From: Actinomycetes bacterium
GTDB taxonomy: Bacteria > Actinomycetota > Humimicrobiia > Humimicrobiales > Humimicrobiaceae
DNA: 64,000 bases
Direction: 5' to 3'
NCBI GenBank assembly: GCA_022396035.1
Contig: JAIOXO010000001.1
Location: 129,769-193,768, forward strand
Positions 3,264 through 33,197 of this stretch are shown here, one piece after another (within the stretch, counting starts at the first letter, position 1; the number at the start of each line of letters is the position of its first letter). Under the pieces are notes generated by a model, which worked only from the letters and a program-made list of their open reading frames with translations, was not told the DNA's origin and did no database searches. The position numbers and the translations under genes are program-made.

Positions 3264-4082
3264 TTATTTATTAACCAGTTTATTCATGCTTCCCATACGG
3301 TAGCCATCAATATCCAGGGTTACATAAAGGTAGCCCTGATTCTTAAACTCACGTATTACATCTTCTGTTAAACTTCTATCTAAAAACTTTCCCAGTTCTT
3401 TTGACTGCACTTCTATCCTCGCTATACTGCCATGGTGCCTCACCCTTACTTGGGTAAATCCTTTATCTAACAGGAATGTTTCCAGTTTATCAATAATCCT
3501 TAACAGACGTTCGGTTATTTTGGTCCCGTAAGCTATCCTGCTTGCAAGGCAAGCAGAAGAAGGTCTGTCCCAGCCAGCAAGCCCCGTTTGCCTGGATAAA
3601 ATTCTTATCTCCTGTTTGCTTAGGTGGCAATATTTTAGAGGGCTCCTTACCCCCAATTGCTGGGCAGCCTTAGTGCCAGGCCTGTAATCTGAAATATCGT
3701 CCCAATTCTGCCCGTCCAGAACATTAGATATATTGTATTTCTTAGCTATTTCAATTATCTTCCCAAGCTCCCCGATTTTGCAGTAATAGCACCTTAGACG
3801 GTCATTATTTACAAAATTTGGGCCTTCAAGCCCGCTTTCTACCACCACATGCCTTACATGGTGTTTTTCTACAAATTCTGAGGCCCTATCCATATCCCTC
3901 CGGGGAGAAGAAGGAGATTTTAAGGTAATAGCCAAAACTTTTTTGCCCAAAACATCCGATGCTACTTTTACCAGGAAAGAGCTGTCTACCCCTCCAGAAA
4001 AGGCGACTGCCGCCCTTTCCATGGCTTTAAGCTCTGCTTTTAGCTTTAGAAATTTTTCCTCCGTAGTCTGCCTATCAGGCAC
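3264..4082 (-). CDS. LarE-family PP-loop ATP pyrophosphatase / ATP-dependent sulfur transferase
   Basis: PP-loop AVAFSGGVDSS. A LarE-like PSSACLASR motif contains the candidate sulfur-donor Cys. Additional Cys pair CYYCK. TIGR00268-like architecture. Overlaps or sits tight against neighbouring sulfur genes. Confidence 0.7.
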   Translation of the reverse strand: MPDRQTTEEKFLKLKAELKAMERAAVAFSGGVDSSFLVKVASDVLGKKVLAITLKSPSSPRRDMDRASEFVEKHHVRHVVVESGLEGPNFVNNDRLRCYYCKIGELGKIIEIAKKYNISNVLDGQNWDDISDYRPGTKAAQQLGVRSPLKYCHLSKQEIRILSRQTGLAGWDRPSSACLASRIAYGTKITERLLRIIDKLETFLLDKGFTQVRVRHHGSIARIEVQSKELGKFLDRSLTEDVIREFKNQGYLYVTLDIDGYRMGSMNKLVNK

Positions 4083-9779: not shown

Positions 9780-10365
9780 CCGGCAAGTCTTCTTTCTACA
9801 AATTCATACTCTTTTCGTTACTGGGGGATAAACGGGTGGGTAACCTTAAATGTTTTTCTACCGGTGCCACACGGTGTAGTTGAGAACCTATGTGAAAGGG
9901 AAAATTGAGAGGCCTTACAGGTGGATACAGGACAGGATTGTAAAGACCTGTGCCCGGGAAGGAATAAGTGATATTACAGGTGCCCAGAGAGTTTCTAAAA
10001 AAAGAGATATCAAGGTATAACTACAGGCAGGTCCATTCCACTACCGGCGAGATTCCTTATCTAAGATTTCGAAGAGCACTTGAGGAAAAAGTCTCCCTTT
10101 TCAGGGAATTTTGTCTTATGTCCCCGCGCATAAGTCCACAAAAGATATCTTTGCACTCAGGCTTGACAGGATTATTGGTCCCTACAGAAAGATATCCATA
10201 AATAATCTTGAAATTGCCGTAAACGGCAAGCCTAGGCACTCTGTAAATGGACGTATCTATCCACTTAATACCCAGTTCTCCGAACTGAGGTTCTGGTCGG
10301 ATAAAGAGCTTATCGACGTTAAAAAGATCAAAAATAGTGACCTAAAAGCGGTTCACTTTTAAATC
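9780..10365 (+). pseudogene. ISNCY/IS481-like transposase remnant (C-terminal part only)
   Basis: ORFs 9968..10201 and 10111..10362 in different frames. YNYRQVHSTTGEIPYLRF matches the end of an rve integrase core (YNxxRPHSALG..P..F). No N-terminal part. Neighbouring DNA lacks long ORFs. Confidence 0.45.
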
Positions 10366-10940
10366 ATAAAGTGTTCACTTTTAAAAAATTGCTAACATGC
10401 TTAATTCTTCTATTCTATTTGTGTAAATTAAATATCCCTAAAATATTACTGATAGTATAAACTCAAAAAAAATTTATTGACTTTGAGAAAAATCTAAAAT
10501 CCATGCCATAGTGTATAGAAACAACCACCGCTACCATGGCCTTGAAAATCTTTCCAATATGTTTGGGGAAACTAAGAAAACTCACCTTGCGGAATACCAA
10601 GATTAATCCAGTTGATTACAAAATCCTTTCCAACTACCTTGACCCAATAGACGAGATAGACAAAAAAATAAAGGATATTGACCGTTTAAAAGCATTGTGG
10701 CTTATAAAAGCCAAGATACAGTAGTTTTAAAGCATTTATTATCTTTTGCTTCTAAATATTACCCCCACTTATAATAGAATCCGCAAGACATCTATAAACT
10801 TATTTATATAAGAACTAAATTTATCATTAAATCTTTTCTGGTATATTACTAAAGACACCCTTTAATCGATAATGCAAAAGTAAAAAAATCTCAAACAAGA
10901 GCATAATCCTATTTATTTATCCATATGAACCTTTTATAAA

Positions 10941-11768
10941 TTAATTCTTTTCAACTACCTCTTTGGGATTGCTAAAATAAAATTTTTTAATAAGCAATGA
11001 AACTACCAATATATATATTACATACCCTGCTGTTTCTAATAAAGAAGGGGAAGGATTATATCCAAAAAGTGACCTTAATATTCCACCAAAGATGCTCTCC
11101 TTACTCAAAACATTTCCGATATCGTAAATATTATCTTTTATTACTGGCATAATCCCAGCTTCCTGGAATTCATGTATGGCTGTAGAAAAAAGGCCCGTAG
11201 CAATTAGCATTACTAATATACCAGTAATTTTAAAGAATGCCCCCAGGTTTACTTTCCTTGTAGACAAGAAAAATATTATTGCCAAAATAATTGAGGACAA
11301 AATTCCAGCAGTTCCCCCTAATATAAGTTCAAAAGAATTTACCTGGTAACTGATAGCCCTAAAAAATAAAACAGTCTCTGCCCCTTCTCTGAATACCACA
11401 ATAAAACCTAAGAAAAAAAGGCTAAATATCCTCCCTTTATCTATTGCTTTTCCTACAGATGCTTCAATATTACCTCTAATGCTTTTGGCTTGTTTATTCA
11501 TCCAAAATATCATATAGGTCAATACTACTACTGCTAGCATCATTACTATGCCCTCAAAGACCTCTTCAACCTTTCCTTCAAATCCCCCCAGCAGGACTTG
11601 AAATATATAGGCAAGCCCTATGCTTAAGACAACTGCTAAGACCGCTCCGTAGATTACATGTTTAACATATTTTTTCTCCCCGATTTTTGTCAGATAACTA
11701 ATTATAATTCCTATGACTAAAAAGGCCTCAAGGCCTTCTCTGAACGCTATAAAAAAACTTGATAACAT
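10941..11768 (-). CDS. FTR1/EfeU-family high-affinity iron permease
   Basis: Two REGLE-type motifs (FREGLEAFLV and FREGAETVLF); 7 TM helices; solitary, with no EfeO/EfeB/P19 partner nearby. Confidence 0.85.
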   Translation of the reverse strand: MLSSFFIAFREGLEAFLVIGIIISYLTKIGEKKYVKHVIYGAVLAVVLSIGLAYIFQVLLGGFEGKVEEVFEGIVMMLAVVVLTYMIFWMNKQAKSIRGNIEASVGKAIDKGRIFSLFFLGFIVVFREGAETVLFFRAISYQVNSFELILGGTAGILSSIILAIIFFLSTRKVNLGAFFKITGILVMLIATGLFSTAIHEFQEAGIMPVIKDNIYDIGNVLSKESIFGGILRSLFGYNPSPSLLETAGYVIYILVVSLLIKKFYFSNPKEVVEKN

Positions 11769-12153
11769 TTTTATTTCCTCCTAATTATAAAATTTAGGTT
11801 TGCCTAACTTTATTATAATAAGCCTGCATTGTCAAATATTATTTTGGGAGTGTCATTTAAAAATTATCTATGAAAATATCTGTCAATAACATTTATTAAA
11901 TATAGAGCTTTAAGCGCTATAAAGTTTATATCCGGCAAAAGCTTTATGTACCTACAATTTATTTACCCTAATTCTTTTTGCCAAGTCCATAATACCCCTT
12001 TTCCCCTATTTGTGCTTCTTCTGTTTTTCGACCTTTACCTAAAAAAAGGCGGACTGATTACTTTGTAGCCCTAATACTGTACACTTCCCTGATCTTAATT
12101 TACGCCTTTGATTTTATAAGGACAGGTTATGTTGATATAGCCGCCTCTTTTTT

Positions 12154-25614: not shown

Positions 25615-26650
25615 ATGGCGCAGATCCACAAAAGGTTTGGTTATAATGAGGTAAAAGCCCTTCTTGGAAAATACATAAAGAAGGAAGTGGAAAGAAAATA
25701 TATTGAAGAGATTTTGGGCATTAAGAAAAGAAGGTTCTTTGAACTTTTAAAAAGTTACAAGGAGGACCCAGATTCCTTTACCGTAAAGTATAAGAGAAAA
25801 AAACCCACAAGAAGGATTGGCAAAGAAACAGAAGAGGCCATACTGACTGAGCTGAAGATAGAAAAAGACCTCATAGATTTAGATGATAATCCCATAGTAG
25901 ACTATAACTACAGCTATATAAAGGACAGGCTTGAAAGCAAGCACTATACAAAGGCAGCACTGCCCACCATAATTGACAGGGCTAAAAGATATGGATTTTA
26001 CATGAAGAAAAAAAGGAAAGCTGCGCCATGACCGGGAAGTGGTCACAAAGTATGCCGGAGAACTCATACAGCATGACAGCTCCCACCACAAGTGGAGTCC
26101 CTGTTCGGATAAGAAATGGTATCTTATCACCTCCACCGGTGACTGCAGCAGATTCCTTCTCTACTGAAACCTGGTGGAGACCGAGACTTCCTGGGCTCAT
26201 ATATGTGCTATAGAGGATGTGGCCCTAGCTTACGGGCTTGCCTACTCCTATTATTTTGATTGCCACTCCATATTCAGATTTGTCCAGGGCAGGGACTCTT
26301 TCTGGAGAAAGCATTATAAGGTGACAGATGATGTAGACCCCCAGGTAAAAAAGATACTAATAGATCCGGGAGTAAAGGTAAGATATCCACTCCTCTCCAC
26401 AGGCAAAAGGCCGGATAGAGCGGTTGTGGGGGGTTTCTGTAGGACAGACTGTTGGTAGAGTTTAGCCTAAACGGGATAAAAGATATTGATTCTGCCAATC
26501 TGTTTATGGGTAAGTATATTAAAAAATTTAACCAAAGATTTTCTGTGGTTTCCAAGGGGGAACCTGTTTTCAGGAAACTTTCTCAGGCAATAAATATCGA
26601 TTATATACTGTGCTCTAAAACCCCCAGAAACTTGATAACGGTTTGAGCAT
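25615..26650 (+). pseudogene. ISNCY/IS481-like transposase, frameshifted and 3'-truncated
   Basis: Four consecutive ORFs in shifting frames (25615..26031, 26028..26213, 26174..26458, 26452..26646). N-terminal HTH. GELIQHDSSHHKW integrase-core start motif (compare GELVQIDGSxHxW). Lacks the C-terminal YNxxRPH part, which resembles the remnant at 9968-10362. Confidence 0.55.
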
Positions 26651-26892
26651 TTACATTTAAGGGAGAGGCTACTATCAGCTGATATCCGGCCGAAAGCCTG
26701 CTGCCACTATTGCCCGTTTTAAGCTAAAGGTACTTCTAAGCAGCCGGATAGAAATAAAGGCAGAGTATCGGGCAAGGTATACTCTCTTGCCAGGATAGAA
26801 AAACCTAAAGCTAAAGGAGGCTAGAAGGTTAAAAAAGACAGAAGGATTACTCATAAAAAGGTAAAACGTATGGATCCCATAGCTTTGACAGG

Positions 26893-26927
26893 TATTAATA
26901 TGGTGGAGGCGGCGGGAATCGAACCCG
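26893..26927. repeat. Direct repeat (attL-like): duplicated 3' end of ssrA (27 nt of the tmRNA acceptor/T-arm plus 8 nt of downstream flank)
   Basis: tattaatatggtggaggcggcgggaatcgaacccg is 35/35 identical to 32837..32871, which forms the authentic tmRNA 3' end. Confidence 0.7.
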
Positions 26928-27101
26928 AAGGTTACTGCATCTTAATAGCTATTATGCACAGTTATTGGGTATTGCCTTATAGGGCCTTCCCTATATCTGA
27001 CCTGCTAAAGTTTAGAATTCAGGATTTGTTCCAATTTATTTGCTTTTATGGGGTTGTGTTCAGTCCTTGACATTTTCTTGACATCTAAGACCAAAACCTT
27101 G

Positions 27102-28130
27102 TTATTGGGGGTAATAGAGGTCCTGATACCACTGGACCCAATCAGTTGATAACGGGTTATCTACTTCCTTCACTCTTTTTATAAGCTTATCGGATGTAAA
27201 TGCGAAAAATCTATCGCTGTGGTCTATTAGCTTCTCATATTTTGATATGGTTGGCTCTAGTGATTTGTTGTCAGGATGATAAACAACTGAAAAATATACC
27301 TTTTTATATGGCCATTGAGATGGGCTGGAAGATTCAATACTTGTAGCAAGGAGCTGATTGCGCCATAACTGGTTCATACCCCCCTTAAAGGGGCATTGGT
27401 CATATTTACTGATCAGGTCAGCCTTAAATGGAGATACCTCTCCCAGAGTAATGTTCCAATAGCTGTAGTTACACTTGCTATGATAATAGCAGCGATTAGG
27501 ATCCTTAAGTATTGAACTTGCAGGATAGCATTTATGGCATGGCAAACATCCTTTGGCTTTATATCCCCCACAGGTGGTAAATTCTTTTTCAGTCAATTTA
27601 TGTTCGATTAACCACAGGTTAAGATTGCCCTCATAATCATAATAGGCAATCGCTATATCTGCATCAGTACCGCTTGCCTTATTGTGATCACGTAGCATAT
27701 TATCCGGCTCATCCCAAAACTCGATTCTAAATCCACTGTCAAGAAAGCCAGTTGCGATCTGTTTGAGATCTTCTTTAACACAGCTTAAAACCTTATCAGC
27801 AGTGTTGGGATCTTCCAATATTGGTAAAAATAAGTTGGCGCATGCGGCTTGAGAGCTTGCCATGTTAGCCCCTAAAAACTTATGACTCTTAAAATGTAAT
27901 TTCTGCTGATGGGATAAGAAGTGTTTCTTTACACTCGGGTATAACGGATACAATTGGCCCCTTAACTTGTCAGGGATAAACAAGTCGTAATAAATACCTC
28001 TATATAAACCTGGGTCCTTGCATATATTGGCCCATTTCCAGTCAATTAAATGAGTATATATCTTAAGCTGAAAGTCTGTAAGCACACTAGGAAGCCGGTA
28101 TTCTTTTCCGTTTATTTTATAAATCTTCAT
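27102..28130 (-). CDS. PD-(D/E)xK-like nuclease-fold protein with a C-terminal Cys-rich zinc ribbon, uncharacterised
   Basis: Candidate catalytic core D..(DADIAIAYY)..LWLIEHK (D / E-x-K). CxxC-rich segment CGGYKAKGCLPCHKCY...CYYHSKC. No signal peptide. 22-nt gap to the upstream EEP gene (operon). Confidence 0.4.
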   Translation of the reverse strand: MKIYKINGKEYRLPSVLTDFQLKIYTHLIDWKWANICKDPGLYRGIYYDLFIPDKLRGQLYPLYPSVKKHFLSHQQKLHFKSHKFLGANMASSQAACANLFLPILEDPNTADKVLSCVKEDLKQIATGFLDSGFRIEFWDEPDNMLRDHNKASGTDADIAIAYYDYEGNLNLWLIEHKLTEKEFTTCGGYKAKGCLPCHKCYPASSILKDPNRCYYHSKCNYSYWNITLGEVSPFKADLISKYDQCPFKGGMNQLWRNQLLATSIESSSPSQWPYKKVYFSVVYHPDNKSLEPTISKYEKLIDHSDRFFAFTSDKLIKRVKEVDNPLSTDWVQWYQDLYYPQ

Positions 28131-28151
28131 AATCTTTTAGCTTAAGACTAT

Positions 28152-28883
28152 CTAAAAATCCATTTCAATTAATACTATATTGTGATCGCTAAATCTTCTG
28201 ACCTCTTCATTGTCTAGGATCTCATATTTTAAAAACATGCCCTTAAGGGAATTGCTCATAAAAAAGTAGTCATTTTGCCAGGTTTTTTTACTTTTTGCAT
28301 GACGAAGTTTTTGCACATAATCTTTGTTATCAGATAACTTGTAAACATCACTTAATCCAAAATCCTTGATTCTATCAAAAAGAATCTGGTGAGACCTGTT
28401 ACCCTGAATATCATCGAGCTGTGTGCTTGCATTTAGGTCACCGCCCATTACAATCTTTCTATTCCCTCCGATGTGCCCATTAAACAGACCGGTTAGGTCT
28501 GATATTATCCGATGAAGGTTTGTAATGGAATACCCTTTGCAAGGGCCATTGGATTCCATAAGGCCATACAGGGATATAAAGGTTATCATATGGCCACCTA
28601 TTTTTATATTTCCAATTACAAAGGCTCCCCTAAATTGTGTATCTAGTTCCTCTTGGACTAACTTGTACTTTGGACTGTAAATGCCTGAACCCCAATTGCG
28701 GCTTTGGCCAATCATTTCCCAAACAAGGTTAGCCTCCTGGTTTTTTATTTCCTTGGTTGGGCTTGCTTCCTGGAAAAGATAGATATCCGCTTTTACACCA
28801 TTTAAGAAGTAATCCCATGCTTGGCCCTGCAAGGATTGGTGTTTCCAGTAATCCATATTCCAGGTTGTAATTCTTATAATCAT
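28152..28883 (-). CDS. Endonuclease/exonuclease/phosphatase (EEP, DNase I-like) family protein, cytoplasmic
   Basis: All EEP catalytic motifs present: ITTWN (Asn), YLFQE (Glu), GGDLN (Asp/Asn), SDHN (Asp-His). No signal peptide. Confidence 0.8.
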   Translation of the reverse strand: MIIRITTWNMDYWKHQSLQGQAWDYFLNGVKADIYLFQEASPTKEIKNQEANLVWEMIGQSRNWGSGIYSPKYKLVQEELDTQFRGAFVIGNIKIGGHMITFISLYGLMESNGPCKGYSITNLHRIISDLTGLFNGHIGGNRKIVMGGDLNASTQLDDIQGNRSHQILFDRIKDFGLSDVYKLSDNKDYVQKLRHAKSKKTWQNDYFFMSNSLKGMFLKYEILDNEEVRRFSDHNIVLIEMDF

Positions 28884-28988
28884 ATTTACCCTATTAGTTT
28901 CTAATAGCTCTAGCCCTAAAGGGCTGCCTTCTAATAGTTAAGTTTGATTATAATAAAATATGTGTTTGTTATCTATCACCAAATTTAT

Positions 28989-29549: not shown

Positions 29550-30548
29550 TTATTGTCTAATCATATTCCACTCTGCAGGTTCTCCATCTTCGCCCCTGTA
29601 CTCTCCATCATTACCATGTCTACTTATGCCACTAGCTGTATCACAATCAACCATGATGCCCTCATATTCTGCGAAGTAACCATCATCAACGTAACCTTCT
29701 CTGTTGTAATGCATTTCGATTATATCTCCCACGACAGTGCCTTCGATATTGCCCCAGATAATGTTTTCATCTGGGTGCCACCTTTTACCAGTAAACGTCC
29801 CATCTGCTTGCTGCTCATCTATGACTATTAAACTGGTACTCCTAGTTCCTACTGTCTGAGACCAAGTGCCAATTATGTCATGGCTGAGCTGGAACTCACT
29901 TGATAGGGCGCTAGTGCCTGTCCAATTTCTAATTTCAGAGTCTTTGACCCAAATCCTGAGCTGATATGTTCCAACTGTTTCATAAGACAACCCCTCAAAT
30001 ATGACTTCACCATTAGCATCTGTGAACTCAGAACCTGGGAAATCTTTTTCTCTTATTAAACTTGCCTTCATTTCAAGGCCTTCAACAGGATTGCCGTGAA
30101 CGTCTTTCACTATAGCAGTTGGATAGTTACCTTCAAGGTCTTTAATCTCTTGGCACACAAAACCGTCTGCAATATCTACCACATATTCTATAGACAGACC
30201 TGTTGGAATACCCGCTCCTAACCCTACCAGATAGTTGTATACTGCCTGATAATAAGCCTCTTCGTCACACTTTTCTATAAAGGTTTCTCCGTCCCAATCA
30301 CCATACCAATTATAGGCCGGGAACGCAGCCTTGTTAGTCATTGTCTGGGCAACATCTCTAATGTAGTTGCCTCCATCACGACCCGATCCATATCGAGCAT
30401 CTACCCCTGCTTCTTCTAATAGTTGACCTGCTATATCGGGTGCCGCAAGACACTCATCAGTATTATTTTCTTCTCCCAGTAATACAGCCGGAAAACTGAA
30501 CATAACCACCAGCGATATCACCAGTATTGCAATTATTAGCTTTTTCAC
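29550..30548 (-). CDS. Secreted acidic hypothetical protein (Sec signal peptide)
   Basis: MKKLIIAILVISLVVMFSFPAVLLG signal; no recognisable catalytic motif; preceded by a paralogous structured leader. Confidence 0.55.
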   Translation of the reverse strand: MKKLIIAILVISLVVMFSFPAVLLGEENNTDECLAAPDIAGQLLEEAGVDARYGSGRDGGNYIRDVAQTMTNKAAFPAYNWYGDWDGETFIEKCDEEAYYQAVYNYLVGLGAGIPTGLSIEYVVDIADGFVCQEIKDLEGNYPTAIVKDVHGNPVEGLEMKASLIREKDFPGSEFTDANGEVIFEGLSYETVGTYQLRIWVKDSEIRNWTGTSALSSEFQLSHDIIGTWSQTVGTRSTSLIVIDEQQADGTFTGKRWHPDENIIWGNIEGTVVGDIIEMHYNREGYVDDGYFAEYEGIMVDCDTASGISRHGNDGEYRGEDGEPAEWNMIRQ

Positions 30549-30635: not shown

Positions 30636-30740
30636 AAATAAAAAACCGACCAAACTTAAATCAATTTAGTCGGTTACGCTACTCACTCCACTTCCCTAAG
30701 CGTCCATCTTTGGGTAAGCTTCAGTGTACCTAAATTATTA
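30636..30740 (-). promoter_or_regulatory. Structured 5' leader element, copy 1 (conserved stem-loop, alternative pairing, intrinsic terminator); candidate riboswitch/attenuator
   Basis: Paralogous to 32128-32232. Minus strand reads GAAGCTTACCCAAAGATGGACGCTTAGGGAAG..AGTAGCGTAACCGAC-loop-GTCGGTTTTTTATTT. The terminator hairpin sits about 90 nt upstream of the start codon. ACGCT in the first loop can pair with AGCGT abutting the terminator 5' arm. Confidence 0.45.
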
Positions 30741-31000: not shown

Positions 31001-31075
31001 CATAGCTTCTTCCTAATATAGGAAGAGATGCTGCGTAAAACCATTTGAAGATATGCTGGCAAGGGGATCTTTATA
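31001..31075. repeat. Conserved palindromic element, copy 2 (GCATAGCTTCTTCC-taatata-GGAAGAGATGC...)
   Basis: Homologous to 28989-29057; central inverted repeat TCTTCCTA-TAT-TAGGAAGA; located 60 nt 3' of the LPXTG gene stop. Confidence 0.5.
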
Positions 31076-31080
31076 AACAA

Positions 31081-31114
31081 ATAAGCGGGCACCTATTTTT
31101 AGATGCCCGCTTAT
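31081..31114 (-). terminator. Rho-independent terminator after the LPXTG-protein gene
   Basis: Perfect hairpin ATAAGCGGGCA..TGCCCGCTTAT followed by a T-rich tract on the minus strand. Confidence 0.45.
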
Positions 31115-31134
31115 CTAGACCCGTATTAATAATT

Positions 31135-32088
31135 TTAAGGAGTATTCCTTCTTAGCTTATTTGCTGCAACCATGAGGCCGCCGCCGGCAACAAGCATTCC
31201 CAGTCCCATAAAGACATATACCCAATCAAATCCGGTATAGGGTAGTTCTTCGGTAACACCTAATACTTCTACAGTTTCTTCGGTTATTCCTGCTGTTTCC
31301 ACTACTTCTTCCCCGGAGACTGTAACTTCTTCAACTTTCCCCATAATTCCAAAGTCTACATAAATAGAGTGATCTGCAGAGACATTTTCAAATGTGTATG
31401 TTTCTACTGCTCCTATGTATGCTCCATCAACCGAAACATCGGAAATCTCATAATTTTCATCCCTGGGTGTTATTGTATAGGTCTGGTTTTCACCCTCTGT
31501 TACTGCTAGCTCACCAAGGGGGGTTATAGTTCCACCATTACCAGTTGAAGAAGTTATAACATATGTAGCAAGAGGCAGCACTTCAACTGCCAGAGATGAA
31601 ACCGGTGTACTTTTTTTGGGCTCTTCATTTTGTTTTTCAGTTACAGTAATAGTAGATGTGGATTCATCACTTCCATTCCCATCTCCATCTGGTGTGAAAT
31701 AATTGTAAGTAACTGTAGCCTTATTTATCAACTCTCCAATGTCATCTTCTGTAACAACATATTCGTAATTAATGGTGTAAGGAAAATCATCTTTAAATAG
31801 GGTACCGATATCTCCTTTTTCACCTAAATCTACGAGGCTATCCACCACCTTAACATTCCGGAATTCTTCTCCAAGTCCTGACAAATCAAGTTGTTGCGCA
31901 TTGGCAACATATCCATCTACTCCCTCTTCTGGATTTGGAGGTGAACTTTGATAACTTAAGACTATAGTATGGGTTACAGTATCTCCCGGGTTGGCTTCAG
32001 TCTTGTCAGCAGATTTGCTTATAGATACGCAACCGGACATAAATACCACTAATCCAATTAGTGTAGCGATAGTTAAAAACTTTTTCAT
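31135..32088 (-). CDS. Cell-surface protein with lipoprotein-type signal peptide and C-terminal LPXTG (LPYTG) sortase anchor
   Basis: Probable true start at the MKKFLTIATLIGLVVFMSGC lipobox; the ORF track starts 10 codons earlier at 32118. C-terminal LPYTG plus a hydrophobic stretch plus KLRRNTP. Acidic repeat-rich body. Confidence 0.7.
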   Translation of the reverse strand: MKKFLTIATLIGLVVFMSGCVSISKSADKTEANPGDTVTHTIVLSYQSSPPNPEEGVDGYVANAQQLDLSGLGEEFRNVKVVDSLVDLGEKGDIGTLFKDDFPYTINYEYVVTEDDIGELINKATVTYNYFTPDGDGNGSDESTSTITVTEKQNEEPKKSTPVSSLAVEVLPLATYVITSSTGNGGTITPLGELAVTEGENQTYTITPRDENYEISDVSVDGAYIGAVETYTFENVSADHSIYVDFGIMGKVEEVTVSGEEVVETAGITEETVEVLGVTEELPYTGFDWVYVFMGLGMLVAGGGLMVAANKLRRNTP

Positions 32089-32127
32089 TACTTGTCTTTC
32101 TTTGTAGTAATTTATCAAAACTCTAAT

Positions 32128-32232
32128 TAAAAAATAAAAAACCGACTAATTAAATTTAGTCGGTTACGCTACTTGCTCTGCTTTTCCCAAGCGTCCAGAT
32201 TCGAGAAAAGCTTCAAAGCATCTAAATCTTAT
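32128..32232 (-). promoter_or_regulatory. Structured 5' leader element, copy 2 (paralogue of 30636-30740)
   Basis: Same architecture: stem GCTTTTC..GAAAAGC (a compensatory change relative to copy 1's CTT(A)CCC/GGGAAG), conserved TGGACGCTT loop, AGTAGCGTAACCGAC, and terminator ACCGACTAAAT..ATTTAGTCGGT plus T7. Confidence 0.45.
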
Positions 32233-32836
32233 ACATATATCAACTTTTTATAAAAAAAGAAGTTTAGTTTAATTATATTTTAAAGTCAAGCAGGTTTTCC
32301 AGACAGGTAATAAGAATCAAGAAAAGGGTGAAAAGGATTGGTCCCGAGGCAGTAATTGGTGGCAACAGGAAAAGGAAGCCAACAAATGCAATAGAAGATA
32401 TGCTAAAGGGTCTGGTAGTAAAACTTAAGAAAGGACTATCTCCTACCATACTGGAATGCGCCTTGGTGGGGTGCTGGCTCTGTCCTTGGATTTGGTATTC
32501 TTAAAGGTTAAAACTATTGCAGTAAAAAGGTAACATACCTTAAAAGATGGAAATCCCATTCTAAAAAAGCCCAAATTCTTGCAAGAACTAGCTTCCCACT
32601 CTTTAGGCAGTCCGCCTCTTAATAATCAACCCTTAGATCTTTTAAGTATATAAATGACTTTGGGCATTTTTTGTGCTGAAGATTGAATTTGCCAAGCCAA
32701 ATCCTTGAAATTTTGGAACATGCATTCTCTGAGCTTGAATCCAAAAGGGGTTACTTCTCAGCACATCCTTGTCATTTTCAGCACCCAGCCCACAAGGGTT
32801 GATGCTAAAATACATGGATCTCATGAGTTTAGCAGT

Positions 32837-32871
32837 TATTAATATGGTGGAGGCGGCGGGAATCGAACCCG
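32837..32871. repeat. Direct repeat (attR-like) overlapping the genuine 3' end of ssrA
   Basis: Identical 35-mer to 26893..26927. Confidence 0.7.
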
Positions 32872-33197
32872 CGTCCGAAGATATTGCCACTTAAACTTCT
32901 ACAAGCTTATCCCTTATTTTAATTTCGCTGTCATGTCTGGTAAGGGCACCATCCATAAAAGCTATCCCGCATAAATTTCCCCTGCTATACCTGCGGACAA
33001 GGTATAACCGGGTATCCTGCTAAACGTCGCCTATCGAAAAGCACAGGAAACCTCCCGTAGACGAGCAACGTTAAACTACGCCGCTAAAGCTAACTGTGAA
33101 TCGTCAGCATTTATGTTTAGTTTCAGCTTTTTACGAGTTCTGATACTCGGCTTGCCATCCAAGCTCAACCTATCCCCGTCGAATCCAATTCGCCCCC
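32845..33197 (-). ncRNA. ssrA: tmRNA (transfer-messenger RNA)
   Basis: 5' end GGGGGCGAAUUGGAUUCGACGGGGA and 3' end UUCGGACGCGGGUUCGAUUCCCGCCGCCUCCACCA closely match E. coli tmRNA termini. Acceptor stem has the G3:U70 Ala identity pair. Internal tag reading frame GCT GAC GAT TCA CAG TTA GCT TTA GCG GCG TAG gives ADDSQLALAA* (33108..33076). Located immediately downstream of smpB. Confidence 0.9.

Follow-up and report, generated by a model that had tools for sequence, protein, structure and literature searches.

Two adjacent nuclease genes, which lie on a small genomic islet behind the transfer-messenger RNA (tmRNA) gene ssrA, were analysed in a 64,000-nucleotide stretch of the Actinomycetes bacterium contig JAIOXO010000001.1 (positions 129,769 to 193,768 of the forward strand; referred to as the window). 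The upstream gene of the pair encodes a protein of the endonuclease/exonuclease/phosphatase (EEP) superfamily and the downstream gene a restriction endonuclease-like protein (REase) of the PD-(D/E)xK type, which belongs to the REase-ARP family. A preliminary description of this DNA had delineated both open reading frames (ORFs) in common orientation and had put them forward as a phage-defence pair or toxin. Both ORFs were recovered with exactly these coordinates on the same strand (Table 1). The pair is probably co-transcribed, as suggested by the short gap between the genes, the single promoter-like site in front of them and a terminator-like hairpin (29265-29246) that closes the gene preceding the pair.

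Table 1. Features of the gene pair and of the surrounding islet, in coordinates of the window.
Feature	Coordinates	Strand	Remarks
EEP-superfamily nuclease gene	28152..28883	-	First gene of the pair, 243 aa; ORF, catalytic-residue alignment, profile search, AlphaFold2/Foldseek
REase-ARP PD-(D/E)xK nuclease gene	27102..28130	-	Second gene of the pair, 342 aa; Pfam match
Spacer between EEP and REase genes	28131..28151	-	21 nt, read from the sequence
Best sigma-70-like promoter match, TAGATA-17-TATAAT	28947..28975	-	~64 nt before the EEP start codon; 10/12, consensus match only
Conserved 2.1-kb module (promoter region, EEP, REase, 3' region, distal repeat)	26889..28982	-	blastn against contig L165
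tmRNA gene	32845-33197	-	smpB upstream
Proximal copy of the repeat, covering the tmRNA 3' end	32837..32871	-	
Distal copy of the 35-nt exact direct repeat, matching the 3' end of ssrA and bounding the islet	26893..26927	-	Alignment

Two nuclease proteins encoded on an ssrA islet

The upstream protein had been described as carrying every catalytic motif of the EEP superfamily, and the alignment with 25 homologues bears this out. The catalytic set N9, E39, D149/N151, D205 and D233/H234 is present in this order; E39, D149, N151, D205, D233 and H234 are invariant in 25/25 homologues, while N9 is kept in every homologue that is not truncated at its N-terminus. As a single sequence the protein scored 19.1 bits with the Pfam model PF03372 (Exo_endo_phos), which is under the gathering cut-off of 24.5 bits, and therefore we base its membership in the superfamily on a profile-to-structure search, the motifs and the fold. 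A profile of the family detected Bacillus subtilis ExoA (5cfe, E 1.6e-7) and the LINE-1 endonuclease (LINE-1 EN; E 1e-5) in the PDB. The AlphaFold2 model of the protein (predicted local distance difference test score, pLDDT, 86.5) matched LINE-1 EN, TDP2, ExoIII/Mth0212 and APE1 in Foldseek, with E-values of 1e-14 to 1e-11 and a probability of 1.00. The TM-scores to LINE-1 EN, TDP2, ExoIII and APE1 of about 0.65-0.72 agree with the four-layer alpha/beta sandwich of the superfamily, at just 15-19% sequence identity to the solved structures. No signal-like N-terminus was seen upon inspection by eye, in line with the absence of a secretion signal noted before. The preliminary description had named confident homology to a housekeeping enzyme pair, for example one with an Xth-type repair exonuclease, as a finding that would speak against its proposal; the protein reached 17.4 bits with the Xth equivalog model TIGR00633 of NCBIfam, the cut-off of which is 99.05. 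Taken together, motifs, profile and model indicate an intact enzyme of the DNA-acting EEP branch that is not an Xth orthologue. Its family comprises 109 clusters at 90% identity, and the representatives at 50% identity (E<=1e-30; n=112) are all single-domain proteins.

For the downstream protein, the assignment to the PD-(D/E)xK nucleases was corroborated by a match to PF22558 (REase-ARP) with 74 bits at a cut-off of 27, in which residues 71-339 align with positions 47-269 of the 270 positions of the model. PF20796 was matched with 59.5 bits. The residues GTDxD...LW(L/M)IEHK are invariant across the homologues, and the protein has both the PD-(D/E)xK catalytic motif and the restriction-endonuclease fold. 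It reaches no NCBIfam model at E<=1; one homologue (P0048; 62% identity over 93% of the length) is labelled 'PGN_0703 family putative restriction endonuclease' by NCBI, which is an annotation-level name. The dense zinc ribbon of CxxC/CxxH pairs that had been ascribed to this protein did not hold up. C195 and C198 are particular to the window sequence and not conserved in the homologues, and the family keeps four scattered cysteines, C187, C201, C214 and C246 (spaced by 13, 12 and 31 residues), in addition to C97, none of them in CxxC pairs. These conserved cysteines may form a metal site, which would not be a canonical zinc ribbon. The Pfam scan recognised no domain in the protein that reads modified bases, such as SRA or YTH.

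The placement of the pair within an island at ssrA was likewise correct. The 25-nt core of the repeat that bounds the islet is present in two exact copies in the window, where 0 are expected, and the pair occupies the distal end of the ~5.95 kb between the repeats. No recombinase-like ORF was found between 26893 and 32844, and thus the integrase expected of an ssrA island is missing from the islet. As claimed before, there is no methyltransferase: the islet contains no methylase ORF, and similarity to HsdM, HsdS or HsdR was detected nowhere in the window, which does not fit a classical restriction-modification (R-M) system. Genes for ARG, Macro, Nudix, WYL, rhodanese-phosphatase or chaperone proteins were not found in the islet either, and inclusion of the flanking ORFs did not reveal an ARG system.

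Apart from the pair, the islet holds two genes for secreted or surface proteins, each located behind a c-di-GMP-II riboswitch (RF01786). The riboswitch at 32149-32232 (-; 73.8 bits) precedes gene 31135..32118, whose product ends with LPYTG and a hydrophobic tail, and the riboswitch at 30659-30740 (-; 54.3 bits) precedes gene 29550..30548, whose product has a signal-like N-terminus and a weak match to Big_1. Just beyond the distal repeat, beside pntAB, a run of Pfam-negative ORFs of 138, 61, 94 and 64 aa in shifting frames (25615-26646, +) looks like a decayed mobile-element gene.

Genomic contexts of the module and of both families

The same two genes, with 89% protein identity, were found directly after smpB-ssrA on a 287-kb metagenomic contig (L165), where they occupy positions 10001-10729 and 10751-11776 and are again spaced by 21 nt. 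In blastn the module aligned with L165 9902-11992 over 2095 bp (89% identity); for the flank with smpB and ssrA the identity was 81%. The promoter-like site lies at the edge where nucleotide homology to L165 begins (28982). At the other end, the ssrA repeat recurs in L165 directly after the REase gene, resulting in an islet of ~2.3 kb that holds just the EEP and REase genes. Since the module is the sole content of this islet, EEP and REase travel as one unit. A third copy of the module is present on contig L166. Comparison of L165 12143-16017 with window 31067-32299 showed that the L165 homologue of the islet's surface-protein gene (82.5% nucleotide identity) is found outside the islet, with the second ssrA repeat and an IS21 element in between. 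The contents of the islet have therefore been rearranged between the two genomes.

Beyond these copies, we surveyed the surroundings of more distant relatives, using 80 metagenome loci for the EEP (46-65% identity; 46 of them with at least 1.1 kb of downstream sequence) and 84 loci for the REase, i.e. 80 genome loci with relatives of 43-66% identity and 4 from neighbourhood look-ups. In 7 EEP loci the EEP gene is followed by a gene for a 292-aa protein (RE292) that matches PF22558 (E 4e-14). This gene stands directly after the EEP gene, on the same strand and with a gap of 16-61 nt, in 6 of the 66 EEP loci that offer at least 300 nt of downstream sequence; in L149 an HNH gene lies between the two. 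Remnants of it, consisting of the spacer and the first codons or of a 46-aa stub, remain in 5 further loci, so that 12/66 loci have or had RE292. The EEPs concerned belong to a different clade from the window EEP. Neither BLAST nor hhalign detected similarity between the 292-aa subfamily and the subfamily of the window REase, which comprise 1732 and 1053 clusters at 90% identity, respectively. Because hhalign of the subfamily alignments found none, the link between both subfamilies is provided by the Pfam profile alone. The occurrence of EEP genes upstream of two REase-ARP subfamilies that cannot be aligned is, in our judgement, hard to ascribe to chance. Because the same EEP family is paired with the second subfamily in 7 loci and with its remnants in 5 more, the link between EEP and REase-ARP is recurrent but facultative.

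Several observations concern the integrity and the surroundings of the 292-aa gene. It has repeatedly been deleted or truncated just after the EEP stop codon (L102, L105, L107, L112, L120), and in L159 (568-1448) it is split by a frameshift. In L119 the EEP gene has a TGA (3307-3309) in place of the codon for its invariant W23, next to an intact REase-ARP gene downstream; the EEP gene may be a pseudogene, the TGA may stem from a sequencing error, or it may be translated as Trp. Elsewhere the 292-aa subfamily is preceded by a 245-aa protein of no recognised family, by an Amidohydro_2 enzyme or by nothing. The 245-aa protein was considered as a hidden EEP, and this was rejected. Within a few kb of DarT-Macro (DarTG) genes the subfamily occurs in three loci (L167 6229-7943, L175 1253-2962, L177 715-2424), and in L169 (1529-2482) and L170 it stands directly upstream of ARPP-1, after which come genes for a PLD-SNF2 helicase and an MmeI-like methylase.

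The relatives of the window REase live in other settings. Of the loci with 43-54% identity that have enough upstream sequence, 23/47 are type I R-M operons of the order hsdM-hsdS-REase-hsdR, in which the stop of hsdS and the start of the REase gene often overlap and 19-51 nt separate the REase gene from hsdR (loci L034-L084, e.g. L039 8001-9002 and L044 8001-9020). The closest relatives (57-66% identity) are solitary, with 0/21 loci in R-M operons. Further neighbours of REase relatives are ARG, GmrSD_N, NucS_C, YhcG, Fic, RadC and AAA_5. The slot between hsdS and hsdR is that of the anticodon nuclease PrrC, which sits in the EcoprrI type I R-M locus in the order hsdM-hsdS-prrC-hsdR. By analogy, this suggests that these relatives may serve as a latent back-up nuclease that is guarded by the R-M complex. 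On a broader and more speculative view, REase-ARP may be a 'plug-in' effector that varied partners keep latent, be it the EEP, an ARG-phosphatase module or, in the PrrC slot, HsdS and the type I complex.

Besides REase-ARP, the genes immediately next to the EEP code for KAP NTPases, HNH proteins, a protein with an FRG domain, a DUF6508-ARG fusion, another ARG, GmrSD, AbiTii, AAA_15/AAA_21 ATPases, HsdR, Cas8b, a protein with an SLFN/AlbA_2 domain and SNase. Around both families, the neighbouring genes are thus typical of defence. Even EEP copies that are ~90% identical differ in their neighbours, which all share one strand. At a distance of about 100 nt from the EEP stop codon, a palindrome-rich conserved element (TCTTAAC...AAGTTARRG) was noted in L097, L103, L108, L114, L118, L121, L144 and L149, whichever gene follows and within same-strand hypervariable arrays; it may be an attC-like site, the arrays then being integron cassettes, or a terminator. 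In L179-L181 (6001-6732) an EEP gene with 58% identity to that of the window is located inside a resistance-nodulation-division (RND) efflux operon, between the membrane-fusion and ACR_tran genes with gaps of ~45 nt, and looks like an inserted selfish gene. Homologues of either protein were absent from the reference phage and plasmid collections, and IMG/VR contains two loci of each family, which are never together.

These contexts bear on the idea that the two proteins form a housekeeping DNA-repair pair of an Xth-type AP endonuclease and a repair nuclease. A repair pair is very improbable in view of the low score of the EEP with the Xth equivalog, the repeat-bounded islet, the patchy distribution, the hypervariable defence-island neighbourhoods and the readiness with which both genes decay.

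A candidate nuclease cassette and its alternatives

We read the pair as a nuclease cassette of the kind that acts in defence or conflict, which is small, co-transcribed and passed on horizontally, and put the probability of this reading at about 0.5. A function as defence module is plausible, as we infer from context. The phage-defence pair of the preliminary description is upheld as far as two cytoplasmic nucleases of the proposed folds, the mobile unit, the defence-type neighbours and the recurrent link between the families are concerned, but the pairing is facultative. If the pair acts in conflicts, the REase-ARP protein would be the primary effector, which nicks or cleaves the target DNA. 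No methylase is present, and therefore the discrimination of self from non-self would have to come from a feature of the foreign DNA or from a state that is inactive until triggered; activity would depend on modification or damage of the DNA, or would be switched on by regulated activation. Modification dependence is one possible way to spare self DNA. The EEP would act as an optional helper on the ends that are produced, either through 3'-5' resection from nicks in the manner of ExoIII or through removal of blocking adducts in the manner of TDP2 or APE1, and would thereby enlarge the damage or make it irreparable. The partnership would be facultative, each protein working, or at least persisting, alone.

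A number of results weigh against a defence cassette. An EEP gene was found within 8 kb in 0/84 REase loci, and a REase of the window type in 0/80 EEP loci. Both REase subfamilies (1053 and 1732 clusters) are far bigger than the EEP family with its 109 clusters, and therefore most REase-ARP proteins have no EEP partner. Fusions of EEP and REase were absent among the best 150 EEP representatives. Either gene decays while the other stays, as seen from the deletions of the 292-aa gene and the EEP stop codon in L119, and 11 of the solitary REase loci of 57-66% identity are from Anaerolineae, where the gene adjoins dnaN. In PADLOC-DB v2 the EEP obtained just a spurious match to Cas2 (E 0.024); neither the REase nor related proteins gave a match. 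No experiment on either family was found in the literature. Lack of conserved co-occurrence had been named beforehand as a reason to abandon the proposal of a two-gene system, and for this subfamily such a lack is largely what the census returned. The two genes do not form an obligate two-gene system, and the specific pairing is confined to one lineage. The earlier finding is thus real and well placed, but overstated.

The same census speaks for the leading competitor, according to which two independent stand-alone nuclease genes, serving solo defence or being selfish, were captured side by side and share a transcript, neither needing the other. Each family is overwhelmingly found without the other. 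The REase occurs alone in Anaerolineae or as part of type I R-M operons. Downstream of the EEP stand many unrelated genes, even where the EEP copies are ~90% identical, and one copy sits in the RND efflux operon; either gene decays independently. However, chance capture has to account for the fact that in two EEP clades, and with two REase subfamilies that cannot be aligned, the two families are neighbours on one strand, with their order kept and the gaps short. In addition, the islet of L165 consists of the pair alone, and the conserved module begins at the promoter-like region upstream of the EEP. We consider independent capture less probable than a cassette, but the foremost of the alternatives.

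Decay also informs the possibility that the pair is a module for toxin-immunity or addiction, with the EEP neutralising or repairing the damage that the REase causes. Such a module would explain a tight gene pair without methylase, and the REase gene is lost oftener than the EEP gene, as expected of a toxic gene. Yet REase-ARP proteins occur without any EEP in >150 loci, the REase of L119 is intact while its EEP has a stop codon, and an intact catalytic EEP would be an unusual antitoxin, for which reasons we give this possibility little credence.

The pair might alternatively represent a reduced ARG-centred system against ADP-ribosylation, in which the EEP replaces the phosphatase and processes ADP-ribose or other nucleic-acid adducts, with REase-ARP as back-up effector. 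TDP2-like EEPs remove adducts from DNA ends, and TDP2 is among the fold matches of the window EEP. The EEP gene directly adjoins ARG in L098 and L113, ARG lies downstream in L163, one relative of the window REase has an ARG neighbour, and the 292-aa subfamily occurs near DarT-Macro in three loci and beside ARPP-1 in L169/L170. Moreover, the definition of REase-ARP goes back to its association with genes for ARG and the rhodanese-phosphatase, and the phosphatases of these systems are interchangeable (PMC9503650). On the other hand, the window islet has no ARG, Macro, Nudix or WYL gene, ARG adjacency or proximity amounts to 3/80 EEP loci, and the description of these systems includes no EEP component (PMC9503650). 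We regard a reduced ARG system as rather improbable.

A stronger version of the defence reading is that the pair is a genuine two-enzyme anti-phage system that has not yet been named, in which REase-ARP recognises and nicks modified, damaged or ADP-ribosylated DNA and the TDP2- or ExoIII-like EEP turns the nicks or adducts into lethal gaps. This version appears unlikely. As it stands, the pair is one more uncharacterised candidate among the many in defence islands and would not surprise a specialist without a phenotype. If functional, the pair would offer, in a minimal and easily cloned two-gene form, an experimental handle on REase-ARP, which is so far only a predicted immune effector and has >1,000 clusters per subfamily at 90% identity. 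It would also be a first case of a bacterial EEP nuclease that stands alone and acts in defence. Furthermore, the REase subfamily in the PrrC slot raises the idea of a DNA nuclease that is held as back-up behind restriction.

Comparison with known systems

Positional analogy connects relatives of the window REase (43-54% identity) with PrrC of EcoprrI, as they share the slot between hsdS and hsdR. PrrC differs in that it combines an ABC-ATPase with an anticodon nuclease and acts on tRNA, whereas the REase is a PD-(D/E)xK protein whose target is presumably DNA, and type I genes are lacking around the copy in the window. With the PGN_0703 family the window REase is connected through P0048 (62% identity), but it matches no NCBIfam model itself. 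Compared to the solitary or type IV restriction endonucleases of the Mrr and MspJI class, it has no recognisable modified-base reader domain. The EEP has the fold, the full catalytic set, the single-domain organisation and a similar size in common with ExoIII/APE1, the LINE-1 endonuclease and TDP2. It departs from them by its low identity of 15-19%, by failing the Xth equivalog model and by its mobile, defence-type contexts as opposed to conserved repair loci.

In the anti-phage literature, the only mention of EEP that we found concerns ARMADA. The type II YprA helicases of ARMADA carry EEP and Vsr (PD-(D/E)xK) domains that are predicted to be inactive (bioRxiv 2025.09.15.676423, PMC12458937). 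The combination of EEP and PD-(D/E)xK in a defence context is thus shared with the window pair, but in ARMADA both domains are parts of a helicase protein, whereas in the pair each nuclease is a small protein of its own with its active site intact, and a helicase is absent.

The closest precedent is the REase-ARP family itself, which was introduced in 2022 as a rapidly evolving family and predicted to supply the effector in systems of conflict between viruses and their hosts (Iyer, Burroughs, Anantharaman, Aravind, Viruses 14:1977, PMC9503650). 'ARP' stands for ARG and Rhodanese-Phosphatase, and REase-ARP was defined by its link to such genes, the systems of which are predicted to counter viral ADP-ribosylation (PMC9503650). 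We also considered that 'ARP' might denote an AP-endonuclease-related protein, which would mean that the pairing had already been catalogued; this was rejected, as the source paper gives ARG and Rhodanese-Phosphatase. An EEP component is not mentioned by Iyer et al. 2022 (PMC9503650), and a literature search for REase-ARP, PF22558, PF20796, PDDEXK_13, TOTE and PGN_0703 returned no functional study. The earlier statement that the pairing is not among the named systems is therefore correct with respect to PADLOC, from which it is absent, but because REase-ARP (PF22558) was described in 2022 and a homologue is named as PGN_0703 family, the REase is not an unrecognised protein. The window pair and the REase-ARP conflict systems have in common a fast-evolving PD-(D/E)xK core that is a variable add-on in defence-type neighbourhoods. 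They differ in the partners, which are ARG, a rhodanese-phosphatase, a Nudix/WYL regulator and a chaperone in the conflict systems and an EEP nuclease in the window. Taken together, the pair is best filed as a facultative and mobile variant of the REase-ARP conflict modules, with an EEP partner, on a minimal ssrA islet.

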